A stretch of 64,000 bases of DNA from an uncultured Gemmatimonadales bacterium (lineage in GTDB: Bacteria; Gemmatimonadota; Gemmatimonadetes; Gemmatimonadales; Gemmatimonadaceae): the NCBI GenBank assembly GCA_963851265.1, contig CAWKNZ010000007.1, positions 672,001 through 736,000 of the forward strand. The letters are read 5' to 3'. The translations under genes were made by a program, and so were the position numbers. The notes under the pieces were generated by a model. It was not told the origin of the DNA, did no database searches, and saw only the letters and a list, made by a program, of their open reading frames with translations. This document shows positions 3,799 to 9,889 of the stretch, one piece after another (the first letter of the stretch is position 1; each line of letters opens with the position of its first letter).

Positions 3799-4473
3799 AT
3801 GCCCCGTCGCCTCTCCTCCCGCTTCGCGCCTCGCCAACTCGCGTTCGGCGCCGTCTCGCTCGCCGTTCTCGCGGGCTGCGCGCAACGGCCGGAGGCCCCA
3901 CCCGCAAGCGCCGACACCGCGCTGAACAACGACCTCGCACTCGCCGGGCAGCAGCAGCGCGCGACGCAGGTGGTCTCACCCCAGGAGCTGACCGCCGCGC
4001 CGGCACGCGCACCGGAGCCGGCGCGGCGGCCGGAACGCACGCGCGTGATCGAACACGTGATCTACCGGACCGCGCCCGCCGCACCCGCCGCGTATGCCTC
4101 GCCGAGCTATGCGGCCGCCGCCCCGGCGCCCGTGGAGCGGCCCACGTACACGCCGTACCCGCCGCCGCGGCGCGAAGAGACCTACGGCGGCGGCTACGGG
4201 GGCAACGGTGGCTACGGCGGTGGCTACGGGAACGGCAACTACGGCCGCGGAGGGTACGGCAACGGCGGGACTTACGGCGCGGCCCCACGCCCGGTCTACC
4301 GCCCGCCGCAGGGTCACGCACAGCGCGACGGCGCGATCGGCGCCGTGGCCGGCGCGATGGTCGGCGTCGCGGCCAGCCACCGCAAGGATCGGCTCCGCGG
4401 CGGCCTGATCGGCGCCGTCGCCGGTGGGGCGCTCGGCGCGATCTACGGCCACTCGGTCGACCGCACGCCGTAA
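3799..4473 (+). CDS. Lipoprotein with C-terminal glycine zipper (paralog 1)
   Basis: Lipobox LAGC; Pro/Ala and Gly/Tyr/Asn low-complexity middle; GAIGAVAGAMVG...GGLIGAVAGGALGAIYG. Confidence 0.8.
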   Translation: MPRRLSSRFAPRQLAFGAVSLAVLAGCAQRPEAPPASADTALNNDLALAGQQQRATQVVSPQELTAAPARAPEPARRPERTRVIEHVIYRTAPAAPAAYASPSYAAAAPAPVERPTYTPYPPPRREETYGGGYGGNGGYGGGYGNGNYGRGGYGNGGTYGAAPRPVYRPPQGHAQRDGAIGAVAGAMVGVAASHRKDRLRGGLIGAVAGGALGAIYGHSVDRTP

Positions 4474-4597: not shown

Positions 4598-5386
4598 ATG
4601 CGCCGTGCCATGCGCGCCCTATGCCCCGCGCTCTCCGTCGCGGCGCTCTCGTTTGCCGGAGCCTGCGCGCGACGTCCGATCGCGGCCGACACGGGGCTCA
4701 ATAAGGACTTCGCGCTCGCCGATCAGATGCAGCGGCAGAATGCGCCCGCGCTCGTCGCGGCGCCCGAGCTGGCGCCCGTGCCCGATTCGGCGCCCGTCCG
4801 ACCGGCGCAGATGCGACGTCCGATGGTGGTCACGCGCGTCGTCACGCGCACGATCACCGTCGTGCGCCCGCCCGCTCGCTCCGACGCCGGGACGGCGTAC
4901 AACGTGGAGGGTGCGGTTCCGGCGTCGCACGACGTTCGGACGTCCGGCGGGGCGATGGGCGGCGACGTGGTCGCGAGCGGAGCGGAGCGTCGGGGCGCGC
5001 GCCGAGATGCGGAAGCGACGGGCTCGTACGGCGTCGACGTGCCCGCGTCGGATGCGGGCACGTATGCCGGCGCGACGTCGGCGGGCGCGAACGCGGGTAC
5101 CGTCGTGTCTCCGACGAGCGCGCCGGACGGCGAGTACGGTTCGAACGTGCCGGTTTCGCGGCAGCCGCAGGCGCACGCGGCACGCGACGGCGTGTTCGGG
5201 TCGCTCGCCGGCGCGATCCTCGGAGCCGCCGCGAGTGGGCGTGGCAATCGCGTGCGCGGCGGTCTCATCGGCGCGGTGGCCGGCGGGGCGCTCGGCGCGA
5301 TCTACGGCGGGGCGGTCGACCGCACGACCTCGGGATACGGTTACGGATCGGCGTATCGGAGCCCTCGAGCGTACCGGACGTACTGA
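4598..5386 (+). CDS. Lipoprotein with C-terminal glycine zipper (paralog 2)
   Basis: RBS GGAGG; lipobox-like AGAC; shares RGGLIGAVAGGALGAIYG with paralog 1. Confidence 0.8.
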   Translation: MRRAMRALCPALSVAALSFAGACARRPIAADTGLNKDFALADQMQRQNAPALVAAPELAPVPDSAPVRPAQMRRPMVVTRVVTRTITVVRPPARSDAGTAYNVEGAVPASHDVRTSGGAMGGDVVASGAERRGARRDAEATGSYGVDVPASDAGTYAGATSAGANAGTVVSPTSAPDGEYGSNVPVSRQPQAHAARDGVFGSLAGAILGAAASGRGNRVRGGLIGAVAGGALGAIYGGAVDRTTSGYGYGSAYRSPRAYRTY

Positions 5387-5410: not shown

Positions 5411-5444
5411 CTAGTGGTCCGAATCCGAAGTTCGCCGCCAGTTC
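5411..5444 (+). repeat. Left terminal inverted repeat (including CTAG)
   Basis: CTAGTGGTCCGAATCCGAAGTTCGCCGCCAGTTC. Confidence 0.9.
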
Positions 5445-5693
5445 TTCCGCACCCGTGCCGCTGTGTCGCGGCCGACTACACGGGCGGAGCACGTCGGACA
5501 CACGCGCGCCGCACGACGCCGCCCCGTGACGTGGGCGAGCGCCGCGGTGCCCTGCCGAGCGCCCGCCCCGCGCTTACGCCCGGGACCCGGCCCGCAGCAG
5601 TCCTGCTGCTTGCGTGCCGGAGCTGACGGTGGTACCGTGGCGCACCCCGCTTCCCGGGCAAGCCACGGCTTCGGGCGCAGGCGCCGTCCCTTG

Positions 5694-6689
5694 ATGGTGT
5701 ACCCAGTCCCCCCGCCCGTGCCCGCCGTCCGTCTGTCCCGCGCGCGCGCCCACGTCGCGCTCGCCCCCCTCGCGGCCGTCGCGCTCGCGGCCGCCCCGCT
5801 CGCCTCGCACGCCCAAGGCTACACGTACACCTCGTTCAACGCGCCTGGGGCGCGGGAATTCACCGCTGGCAGCGGCATCAACGACGCCGGGCAGATTGTC
5901 GGGAACTACGACGGCGGCACGGGCAGCTTCCTCTACAGCGCGGGGACATTCAGCCCCGTCACCGCGCCCGGGGCGAGCTACACCTTCGCTACCGGCATCA
6001 ACGCGGCCGGGCAGATCGTCGGGTACTATGACGACGCGTCGTACCACACTCACGGCTTCCTCGACAACGCCGGGACGTTCAGCACCTTCGACGTGCCCGG
6101 GGCGAGCTACACCTTCGCCACCGGCATCAATGCGGCCGGGCAGATCGTCGGGTCCTACACCGACGCCACGGGCAACGATCACGGCTTCCTCGACAACGCC
6201 GGGACGTTCAGCACCTTCGACGTGCCCGGCGCGACGCGCGGCACCTACGCCTCTGCCATGAACGCGGCCGGGGAGATCGTCGGGTACTACCACGACGCCT
6301 CGGGCTACCACGCCTTCCTCGACAACGCCGGGACGTTCACCACCCTCGGCGCGCCCGGGGCGACCAACACCTACGCCTACGGCATCAACGCGGCCGGGCA
6401 GATCGTCGGGTCCTACACCGACGCCACGGGCACCCACGGCTTCCTCGACAACGCCGGGACGTTCACCACCCTCGACGCGCTCGGGGCATCCTCGACGCAA
6501 GCCTACGGAATCAACACAGCCGGGCAGATCGTCGGAACCTACTACTTGCCCTCGTCGTACCCCGGCCACGGTTTCGAGGCCACCCCGAACGTGCCCGCGA
6601 CGACGACGCCCGAGCCTGCCATACTCGCGCTCGTCGGCGCGGGGCTGCTCGCCGTCGGCGGCCTGGCCCGGCGCTCGCGCATCGGCTGA
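5694..6689 (+). CDS. PEP-CTERM-sorted surface protein with six HAF-like repeats (probable beta-propeller)
   Basis: Signal peptide ending ASHA-Q; six GINxAGQIVG-type repeats; C-terminus TTTPEPAILALVGAGLLAVGGLARRSRIG. Start could be GTG at 5718. Confidence 0.88.
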   Translation: MVYPVPPPVPAVRLSRARAHVALAPLAAVALAAAPLASHAQGYTYTSFNAPGAREFTAGSGINDAGQIVGNYDGGTGSFLYSAGTFSPVTAPGASYTFATGINAAGQIVGYYDDASYHTHGFLDNAGTFSTFDVPGASYTFATGINAAGQIVGSYTDATGNDHGFLDNAGTFSTFDVPGATRGTYASAMNAAGEIVGYYHDASGYHAFLDNAGTFTTLGAPGATNTYAYGINAAGQIVGSYTDATGTHGFLDNAGTFTTLDALGASSTQAYGINTAGQIVGTYYLPSSYPGHGFEATPNVPATTTPEPAILALVGAGLLAVGGLARRSRIG

Positions 6690-6877
6690 GCGCCGGCAGA
6701 ACGTCGAAGGACCGAGTGGACGAGGGCGCATCGGCGTCCCCGTTCGGGGTCACGGGCGCCACTGCCCGTCTGCGAGGGCACACGGCGGTCGGCGGTGTGG
6801 CAATGGCGTGCGCGGGGGCTGCTTCCGACGTTCGTGGCCCGTGCGGCGGGGCGAGGCGCGACGGCGGCCGAACGCAC

Positions 6878-6911
6878 GAACTGGCCGCGATCTTCGGATT
6901 CAGACCACTAG
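6878..6911 (-). repeat. Right terminal inverted repeat (including CTAG)
   Basis: Reverse complement is CTAGTGGTCTGAATCCGAAGATCGCGGCCAGTTC. Confidence 0.9.
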
Positions 6912-8260
6912 CTCGTCCTGATCGCGACGACCACGTCCGCGACGTTCGTTCCGGTCGGAGCCGCGGGCAGCAGCGCGCCGGCCGCCCCGAGCGCGTCGGA
7001 GCTGCGGTGCGCGGCGAGGTCGGCGTCCGGGTCGCGGCCCGCCGCGCGCACACGCGCCCAGGTCGCGCCGTCGACCACCGCACCGGCCGCGTCGGTCGGG
7101 CCGTCGCGCCCGTCCGTGCCGGCGGCGAGCAGCGTCACCTCGCTCGCGTGCGGCGCGGCCGCATGGAGCGTGGCGGCGGCCGCGAGCGCGAATTCCTGCA
7201 TTCGACCGCCGCGAGCGTCCGGGGCTCCGCCGAGCGTGACGACCGGCTCGCCGCCCCAGACGTGCACCGTGTCGGGGGGACTCTCGAGCAGCACACCGGC
7301 GAGCGATCTGCCGAGCACGGCCGCCTCGCCCGCGAGCCAGTCGGCGTGGTCGATGACGGCATAGCCTAACGCGCGCGCCGCATCGGCCGCCGCGGCCCGG
7401 GCGTCGGCGTTGGCGCGCACGATCTGCAGCCGGACGCCCGCGAACGCCGGGTCGCCCGGCTTGGGCGTTTCGGCGCGCCACCTCTCGTCGGTCGCGTCGG
7501 CGACCGCCGCGACGGGCGGCGTGAGGTACCGCCGCACCGCGGGCGGGAGTGCCGGCCACACCGGGCCCGGCGCGAGCGTGTCGTGCAGCAGCGCCGCGGT
7601 CCACGGGTCGGGCGCGCACGGCCCCGAGCCGATCACGGCGGGCTCGTCGCCCGGAACGTCGCTCAGCATGAGGCAGAGGACGCGCGCGGGGGCGAGGGCC
7701 CGGGCGAGGCGCCCCGCGCCCCATCGACTCACGCGCTTGCGGACCGCGTTCACGACGTCGATCGGCACGCCGGCGCCGAGCAGGGTGCTGGACGTCGCGG
7801 CGACGTCGGCGGGCGTGAGCAGGGGGTCGACCGGCGCGCCGATCAGGCTCGACGTGCCGCCCGAGACGAGCACGAGGGCGAGGTCGAGCGGCCCGACGCG
7901 GGCAGCCGCGTCGCCGAGTGCGGCCGCGGCCGCGACCGAGCGGTCGCCGGGAATCGGATGGTCACCGACCACCACGCGCACGGCGGAGTTCGGCGGCGGG
8001 GCGTCACGGTGCGCGACCACGACGCCTCCGGCAACGTCCACGCCGCGCTCGGCGAGTGCGTCGACGGCGGCGCGGGCCATCTCGTGCGCGGCCTTGCCGA
8101 CGGCCAGCAGGTGCACGGCGTCGTCGCCCGTGAGGGCGTACGACGCGAGCGCGGCCGCGACCGCCGGGCCCGGTTGGGCGCCTGCGATCGCGGCCGCGTG
8201 GCAGGTCGAGAGGGCCGACCGTGCGCGCGACTCCGGAGAGATCGGCCGCGGGTCGGTCAC
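6908..8260 (-). CDS. Glycerate 2-kinase / hydroxypyruvate reductase family (DUF4147 + MOFRL)
   Basis: LAVGKAA, GDHPIP, LVSGGTSSL, LSDVPGD..VIGSGP, GGRMQE, GTDGRDG and TGTNVAD motifs; probable GTG at 8260. Confidence 0.9.
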   Translation of the reverse strand: MTDPRPISPESRARSALSTCHAAAIAGAQPGPAVAAALASYALTGDDAVHLLAVGKAAHEMARAAVDALAERGVDVAGGVVVAHRDAPPPNSAVRVVVGDHPIPGDRSVAAAAALGDAAARVGPLDLALVLVSGGTSSLIGAPVDPLLTPADVAATSSTLLGAGVPIDVVNAVRKRVSRWGAGRLARALAPARVLCLMLSDVPGDEPAVIGSGPCAPDPWTAALLHDTLAPGPVWPALPPAVRRYLTPPVAAVADATDERWRAETPKPGDPAFAGVRLQIVRANADARAAAADAARALGYAVIDHADWLAGEAAVLGRSLAGVLLESPPDTVHVWGGEPVVTLGGAPDARGGRMQEFALAAAATLHAAAPHASEVTLLAAGTDGRDGPTDAAGAVVDGATWARVRAAGRDPDADLAAHRSSDALGAAGALLPAAPTGTNVADVVVAIRTS

Positions 8261-9124: not shown

Positions 9125-9222
9125 ACGGCACGACGCACCGGGGTGACGGTCCCGACACGACGGAGCGGCGTCACGGCGCCGTGCAGAGGCAGGCACGGAC
9201 GGGTGCGCGCGCCCGCGACGCG

Positions 9223-9237
9223 TGGCCCGCGCTATGC
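9223..9237 (+). promoter_or_regulatory. Candidate sigma-54 promoter
   Basis: TGGCCC-GCGCT-ATGC has correct GG/GC spacing versus TGGCAC-N5-TTGC and lies 50 nt upstream of the ATG at 9287. Confidence 0.4.
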
Positions 9238-9286
9238 CACTAGCGGTGTCAGCAACCGAACCCGACGCTCCCGAGGATCCCCGACC

Positions 9287-9889
9287 ATGCAGCTCTCGTC
9301 CACCATTCGTTCGACGTCGCGTGTGCGCACCGCGTTCGCGCTGACCGCTCTCACCCTGGCTGCCGCGTGCGGCGGTCAGAGTTCCGATTCCGACCGCGCG
9401 CTGCGCAACGACCTGTCGCTCGCCGGCAAGCCGGGCGCGGCGCAGCAGGTGGTTTCGCCGCAGGAGATGACGCCAGCCGCTCCCGCCGCGGCCGCGCCGG
9501 TTCCCGCCGCGGGCGCCACCGGGGTGCCTGCCACGGCGTTGGCCGCGCCGGCGCCGGCCCCGGCACCTGCGCCCATCATCGATACGGTGTACCGCGACCG
9601 GCCGACGCACACGGCCTCGCACACGCGCGGGCACCACTCCTCGAATGCGGATTCGCGCAGCGGGCATTACAGCAACGGCGACGCGGTGGCGGCCGCGCCG
9701 GCGCCCGTGCCGACGGTACGGAAGAGTCACACGCAGCAGGGCGCGCTGATCGGCGGTGCCGCGGGCGCCGTGCTCGGTGCGGTGACGGGTGGCGGCATCA
9801 AGGGCGGGATCGTCGGAGGCCTCCTGGGCGCCGGCGCGGGCGCGGTGATCGGCAACAACACCGGCGTCAAGCACGTGCCGCAGCAGTAA
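9287..9889 (+). CDS. Lipoprotein with C-terminal glycine zipper (paralog 3)
   Basis: RBS GAGGA; lipobox AAAC; DRALRNDLSLAG; GALIGGAAGAVLG...GGIVGGLLGAGAGAVIG. Confidence 0.8.
   Translation: MQLSSTIRSTSRVRTAFALTALTLAAACGGQSSDSDRALRNDLSLAGKPGAAQQVVSPQEMTPAAPAAAAPVPAAGATGVPATALAAPAPAPAPAPIIDTVYRDRPTHTASHTRGHHSSNADSRSGHYSNGDAVAAAPAPVPTVRKSHTQQGALIGGAAGAVLGAVTGGGIKGGIVGGLLGAGAGAVIGNNTGVKHVPQQ

Follow-up and report, generated by a model that had tools for sequence, protein, structure and literature searches.

A gene for a PEP-CTERM protein in an uncultured Gemmatimonadales bacterium sits as the single passenger between paired terminal inverted repeats of the IS630 type, with no transposase inside, at a locus that is empty in two relatives. 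The reading we prefer, at a probability of about 0.8, is that this is a single-gene unit, cut and pasted into the TA of a CTAG by an IS630 transposase that was supplied in trans. From its sequence, we would class it among the mobile insertion cassettes, as an IS630-derived one; the kind is known, but examples with IS630 ends have rarely been reported.

The window analyzed here (the whole 64,000-nt stretch of DNA) belongs to a 4.6-Mb assembly of 73% G+C in 12 contigs that is 94% complete (G000). The left arm of the cassette (5411-5444) and the reverse complement of its right arm (6878-6911) are identical at 31/34 positions, with the likeness ending at position 34. The pair scored 41.9 in an inverted-repeat search, compared with a mean of 20.0 (sd 3.0, maximum 32.6) for 300 random control loci, and was absent among the 25 longest repeats of a general repeat finder. 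CTAG, which is found at both ends, is scarce in this genome (555 observed, about 3015 expected from trinucleotides). No further copy of either arm was found in the 4.6-Mb assembly at up to 9 mismatches, and a search of the assembly with an end profile (see below) gave no ends beyond the two arms. The initial annotation of this DNA had counted a single-copy end sequence against a mobile cassette, and in part this is what was found, the end pair being single-copy in G000. Between the arms, the cargo gene is the only coding-like gene (Table 1); no transposase similarity was found there, nor any IS remnant in the interior beyond the repeats themselves. The leader and trailer are unlike the inner ends of IS630 elements (p 0.3-1.0 against shuffles), and a scan of both stretches detected neither a sigma-70 consensus promoter nor an intrinsic terminator. 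Sequence and profile searches thus confirm the earlier description of 31/34 inverted repeats around one six-repeat PEP-CTERM gene without a transposase. The placement of the right CTAG at the TAG stop of the adjoining kinase gene was also upheld, base 6908 (the last of the right repeat) being the third letter of that stop. This gene, on the minus strand and convergent, scores under the NCBIfam glycerate 2-kinase cut-offs and hence is only glycerate-kinase-like. We infer that the element proper is the 1,495-bp unit at 5414-6908, because IS630 elements duplicate TA and the junctions of a related unit in another genome of the genus (G001 C4, described below) fit TA.

Table 1. Features of the cassette and its flanks, in window coordinates.
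Feature	Position	Strand	Basis or remark
Likely TA target duplication, left copy	5412..5413		Within CTAG 5411-5414; sequence
Left terminal inverted repeat, IS630-type, 31 bp after TA	5414..5444	+	42.8 bits, end profile
Non-coding leader of cargo gene	5445..5693	+	No IS630 remnant, no sigma-70 consensus promoter found
Cargo gene, 331 aa, HAF-type repeats and PEP-CTERM	5694..6689	+	Predicted start codon
Non-coding trailer	6690..6877		No IS630 remnant, no intrinsic terminator found
Right terminal inverted repeat, IS630-type	6878..6908	-	43.9 bits; 31/34 to left arm, CTAG included
Likely TA target duplication, right copy	6909..6910		Within CTAG 6908-6911; sequence
Glycine-zipper protein gene, left flank outside element, stop 5384-5386	4598..5386	+	
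Glycerate-kinase-like gene (DUF4147 and MOFRL), right flank outside element, stop 6908-6910	6908..8200	-	

The cassette is probably an insertion at this locus, because the flanking genes adjoin without the cargo gene in two same-genus genomes. The kinase gene was detected in three of the four same-genus genomes. It faces the same glycine-zipper gene in convergent orientation in G001, where the two are 31 nt apart, and in G003, where they are 65 nt apart, and no HAF gene was found at this locus in the examined stretches of either genome. The stop-to-stop distance in the window is 1521 nt, and 24 nt remain after subtracting the unit and one TA. G001 and G003 are other species, and the junctions were compared by gene order and spacing, not base by base; the corresponding stop codons are TGA and TTAG, in spacers that do not align to the window. 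G004 has the kinase gene with a different downstream context, and one sequencing run, sharing 0.07 of the words, gave contigs that reach neither cassette junction. The empty locus in G001 and G003 supports the view, already taken in the initial annotation, of an end-bounded insertion without a transposase. Predicted lipoprotein-like genes with C-terminal glycine-zipper-like stretches lie nearby (window 3799-4473, 4598-5386 and 9147-9889), the first two being tandem paralogs that are retained in G001 and G003. Separately, inverted repeats bound other stretches of G000 as well (C6:3161-5253 and C9:4280-8517; arms of 19/19 and about 34 bp), and frames resembling transposases or integrases lie within or next to these.

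Related ends were sought by pattern searches of about 400 genomes of the family (largely the same sample in each search), 361 genomes of the phylum and a metagenome collection. The loci examined were matches with the core intact or nearly so; from 84 rows, core-mismatch matches and several matches at contig edges were left out. This resolved 19 two-ended units longer than 800 bp: 15 plain elements, one internally deleted element (G321) and three passenger-bearing units. The plain elements (in L058, L059, G007 (two), G313, G063, G051, G044, G108, G232, G097, G304, G281, G355 and G619) measure 1.07-1.25 kb and hold an IS630-like transposase, whole or broken. Complete elements of this size with the same kind of end encode IS630 transposases, those of L058 and L059 matching NF033545 at 243 bits, and every transposase found within ends of this type is IS630-like. 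An end profile was built from 14 ends of 7 transposase-bearing IS630 elements; the next best YTAG site in G000 after the two arms reached 1.0 bits (3578 sites). The arms share 24-26/34 positions with the ends of complete IS630 elements and 29/34 with a single end in G355. By these comparisons, the ends of the cassette are IS630-type, and the autonomous insertion sequence with matching ends that the initial annotation had called for exists in the form of such elements as those in L058 and L059. The best transposase-bearing ends differ from the cassette arms at 8/34 positions, and no exact parent element was identified. When a genome contig collection was scanned for an exact 20-bp end sequence, two matches emerged, neither adjoining a transposase. 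Viral contigs gave no matches to the ends, and plasmids gave three weak ones, one of them on an IS630 gene: on a Roseomonas plasmid, the end of an NCBI-annotated IS630 transposase coincides with a weak match to the left arm (25 bp, 92%, E 0.3). About 20 single ends in relatives have no partner and no transposase within the examined stretch.

There were several candidates that we did not accept as ends. An apparent end in G083 proved to be the tail of a His-rich protein (8.2 bits), a CTAG-led lookalike at C7:544137 of G000 scored at background level, and a loose 12-bp end pattern was rejected as noise. Two further arrangements were noted in passing. The end most like those of the cassette (29/34; L060 2098-2848, G355:C4) shares its CTAG with a neighboring IS630 and is followed by a 237-aa gene without a family match, no partner end being found. 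In L032 (2856-3185 and 4274-4443), several CTAG-bounded hairpin elements of about 75 bp form a contiguous row that separates an IS630 gene from other genes.

The initial annotation had assigned the ends to the IS701 or IS5 type and read the CTAG as a 4-bp duplication. This would account for the CTAG on both sides of the cassette, and G000 does hold a CTAG-bounded IS5-family element (C7:236235-237148; L025 3236-4149) of 914 bp with an open 293-codon transposase frame. However, the ends of that element are unrelated to those of the cassette, no DDE_5 (PF13546) match was found in G000, and the transposases found inside ends of this type are all IS630-like, as described above. We consider an IS701 or IS5 origin extremely improbable.

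CTAG stands on both sides in 16/18 two-ended units, which is compatible with a 2-bp or a 4-bp duplication alike; the two exceptions are G321 and the C4 unit of G001, which is flanked by TTAG at one junction and by CTAG at the opposite one. IS630 reportedly prefers the TA in CTAG, going by the title of a paper by Tenzen and Ohtsubo. The duplication made by the cassette is likely the 2-bp TA within CTAG and not, as had been suggested, 4 bp, because the ends belong to IS630 (PMC2170065) and the TTAG/CTAG of G001 C4 fits TA but not a 4-bp copy. For ISY100, an IS630-family element, mini-elements with 30 bp of each end are described as transposing in vitro with the transposase alone, duplicating TA (PMC2170065). 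It had also been proposed that stop-codon sites are targeted. Among other ends (one of the 39 from G321), 5/39 abut a stop, compared with about 11.6% expected (P 0.47), where the base rate comes from G000 only, 128 of its 553 CTAG sites being stops by a crude codon score, or about 11.6% per side. Stop codons are therefore at base rate, not favored beyond what a CTAG target gives. A stop codon does adjoin one end in 3/4 passenger-bearing units, a pattern that could reflect targeting but equally the persistence of insertions that do no harm.

For the supply of transposase in the host, no match to the IS630 catalytic domain was found in the 94%-complete assembly, and no protein of G000 lies above the NF033545 cut-off. 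The only sequences of the same IS630 subgroup in G000 are two decayed C-terminal relics (C3:80587-80879 and C6:107583-107666), showing the past presence of this subgroup in the lineage. A fragment at C2:20030 proved to be a broken gene of another IS630 subgroup. Because no intact IS630 transposase was found, the cassette is probably stranded and immobile now, as far as an incomplete assembly can show. Complete IS630 transposases with related ends occur elsewhere in the bacterial family.

Besides the cassette, three passenger-bearing units with these ends were found in relatives. First, G001 C1 (L132 965-3160) is a 2,196-bp unit that lacks a transposase and has a PAS histidine kinase as its passenger. 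Its left end matches the left arm of the cassette at 29/34 positions; its right end, which lies where the upstream gene stops, scores -0.1 bits raw and 28.7 bits after setting aside a 10-nt tandem duplication. An empty site for this unit was looked for and not found. Second, G001 C4 (L064 4578-6670) consists of an end, a passenger, a frameshifted transposase and an end, the passenger being a predicted secreted protein without a family match. Third, G051 C2 (L068 5596-6737), in another genus than the cassette host, begins with an end, directly behind which lies a PEP-CTERM gene (22.2 bits); IS630 sequence then resumes at about position 33 of a complete element and stops about 47 codons later; no right end was detected. 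Other IS630 debris adjoins or surrounds the G001 C4 and G051 units, and accessory genes tend to collect in such places in any case. The inner CTAG of G001 C4 was not accepted as a decayed left end (-26.9 bits), though its 81-nt distance to the start codon equals that in L059. As side observations, a PEP-CTERM gene lies about 700 nt outside the left end of the G001 C1 unit, and the G051 C2 and G001 C4 units (L068 and L064), themselves transporter-like, each adjoin the end of another IS630 subgroup, an end that begins CTAAGTAC.

How the cassette may have formed can be sketched as follows. A gene was probably first placed immediately behind the left repeat in an IS630 element, the layout of G051 and G001, and the transposase part would later have been lost to leave a one-gene unit; alternatively, the two ends may derive from the outer ends of two IS630 copies. 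A transposase acting in trans would have bound the two ends of about 31 bp and cut the unit from an earlier site, and the excised unit would have been joined to the TA within CTAG, with TA duplicated. The element end begins with G, which would restore CTAG on both sides and is proposed as the reason that the TAG stop of the neighboring gene survived. The likeness of the two arms bears on the origin. At 31/34, it exceeds that between the two ends of the 7 complete elements (23-29/34), and simple deletion of one IS630 element does not predict arms this alike. A short IS630 miniature element (MITE) that arrived first at the CTAG, with the gene placed between its arms later by another route (recombination or an island remnant), would account for this match, and short paired-end elements of broadly this type do occur (98-226 bp, in G368, G175, G257 and G270), as do the hairpins of about 75 bp with near-identical ends in the alphaproteobacterial-like genome of L032. 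However, no integrase was found, nor any attachment-like direct repeat at the inner borders of the cassette, the passengers inside transposase-bearing elements in G051 and G001 indicate that capture by a full element occurs, and a unit formed by way of a MITE could still be moved by a transposase. We hold such an origin to be quite unlikely, and favor insertion of the gene and its IS630-type ends as one unit.

The cargo itself has six repeats at a spacing of about 126-132 nt, which match the HAF repeat (TIGR02913) at 83.5 bits. Its PEP-CTERM signal scores 17.8 bits against TIGR02595 (cut-off 16), 21.1 bits in a second search, and 19.3 bits against Pfam PF07589, just below the cut-off of 20.7; a likely signal peptide at the N-terminus was judged by eye. 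The features expected of a PEP-CTERM substrate are present (a C-terminal PEP motif, a transmembrane stretch and a basic tail), and G000 encodes one exosortase (PF09721, 209 bits; C2:530762-531508), outside the cassette as the initial annotation had anticipated, together with 28 PEP-CTERM gene matches. As the last step of the proposed scheme, the cargo would be secreted by export via this host exosortase. The gene is host-like in base use (GC 0.71, GC3 0.93), and the closest relatives found (54-57% identity) are in the same-genus genomes G003 and G004 at unrelated loci. Considering this base use and these relatives at other loci, the cargo is likely a native gene of the lineage that was moved or captured rather than a distant import. 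Two HAF-repeat paralogs in G000 (C6:15927-16883 and C9:159212-160012; 43-45% identical) are without terminal repeats. A protein search with the cargo gave 3546 matches, the best about 55% identical among the matches listed and none near enough for a second copy, and a sequence-profile search gave no related solved structure.

The initial annotation had gone further, proposing a dedicated cassette system that swaps PEP-CTERM surface genes and aims at stop codons. Of the four passenger-bearing units, two do have PEP-CTERM cargo and another encodes a predicted secreted protein; without the index case, the one PEP-CTERM gene in three units would arise by chance at about 2-9% if 0.7-3% of genes are PEP-CTERM genes. 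The stop flanking one end of 3/4 units and the fast turnover of PEP-CTERM sets between species (PMC1569441) would also fit such a system. However, flanking inverted repeats were found at only 1/28 PEP-CTERM genes of G000, the cargo gene itself, in a scan of about 500 nt around each gene, with gene starts placed crudely; the other 27 scored 14-24, inside the control range. IS630 ends were found at 0/31 homolog loci, comprising 29 HAF-homolog loci outside the window and the two paralog loci of G000, some of them cut by contig ends (the profile used here included one G321 end). Just 1/44 PEP-CTERM matches in G051 and 0/26 in G001 fall within the units found, one cargo is a cytoplasmic histidine kinase, and the count of other ends at stops, given above, is at base rate. 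There is no sign of a dedicated exchange system in this genome, and we regard one as very unlikely. What survives of the proposal is a weak form, kept by the one independent PEP-CTERM passenger in G051. On a bolder reading, one IS630 subgroup of this bacterial family might repeatedly take up a whole gene with its leader directly behind the left repeat and then shed its transposase, giving one-gene cassettes with a cargo that leans to secreted or PEP-CTERM proteins (3/4 units). We think this possible but rather unlikely. If it were true, G051 C2 and G001 C4 would represent an intermediate stage of IS630 gene uptake and the cassette its end stage, and transposons would offer one way in which PEP-CTERM repertoires turn over fast.

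In genomes with PEP-CTERM genes, few gene sets change faster than these, and the founding paper ascribed their turnover to duplication and loss (PMC1569441); the stems 'transpos' and 'mobile' are absent from the main text of that paper. Here, one PEP-CTERM gene is bracketed by transposon ends where sister species have an empty site, and an IS630 of another genus contains a second. As two PEP-CTERM genes are within IS630 units, transposition would therefore be at least one route of this turnover. A search of literature listings, mainly of freely accessible papers, found nothing that links PEP-CTERM genes to IS630 or to mobile insertion cassettes.

Set beside known systems, the cassette shows the features of a mobile insertion cassette (MIC), in that paired IS-family repeats are present and a passenger takes the place of the transposase. 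MIC231 of Bacillus cereus is reportedly associated with IS231, going by a paper's title, and IS231 is placed in the IS4 family, whereas the ends of our cassette are IS630-type. MICs in the definition of the ISfinder authors (PMC3129680), and likewise the qnrS2 'mic' on plasmids of Aeromonas (PMC4444841), share with the cassette the terminal inverted repeats and the passenger in place of a transposase. Those units are further described as having a target duplication and as movable by a cognate transposase in trans (PMC3129680, PMC4444841), while for the cassette mobility is inferred; where the qnrS2 'mic' has a resistance gene, the cassette has one for a HAF-repeat PEP-CTERM protein. MIC-like units without a transposase are said to be missed by annotation, and an IS with passenger genes is termed a transporter IS, a layout that G001 C4 and G051 C2 exhibit (PMC3129680). 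Compared with IS630 elements and mini-ISY100, for which in vitro transposition of an artificial marker flanked by 30-bp ends is described, the cassette is alike in end sequence, in repeat length and in the TA within CTAG at both junctions (PMC2170065). It differs from an autonomous IS630 member in encoding no transposase of its own, not even a remnant, and in arms that are more alike than those of the 7 complete elements. With respect to the PEP-CTERM/exosortase (EpsH) system, the cargo carries its C-terminal signal above the TIGR02595 cut-off. Overall, the element is of a known kind, has one copy in the genome and is probably stranded, and it belongs with the gene-carrying IS630 units, which are rarely reported; a 2024 paper presents its IS630 composite as the first (PMC11544213). 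In that composite, Tn630-NC1 of Nitrosomonas communis, IS630 ends enclose unrelated genes as they do here, but by means of two whole inactive IS630 copies around four genes, compared with 31 bp per end and one gene in the cassette (PMC11544213). The outer ends of composite units tend to match each other better than do the two ends of one element (PMC11544213), a tendency that the arms of the cassette follow.
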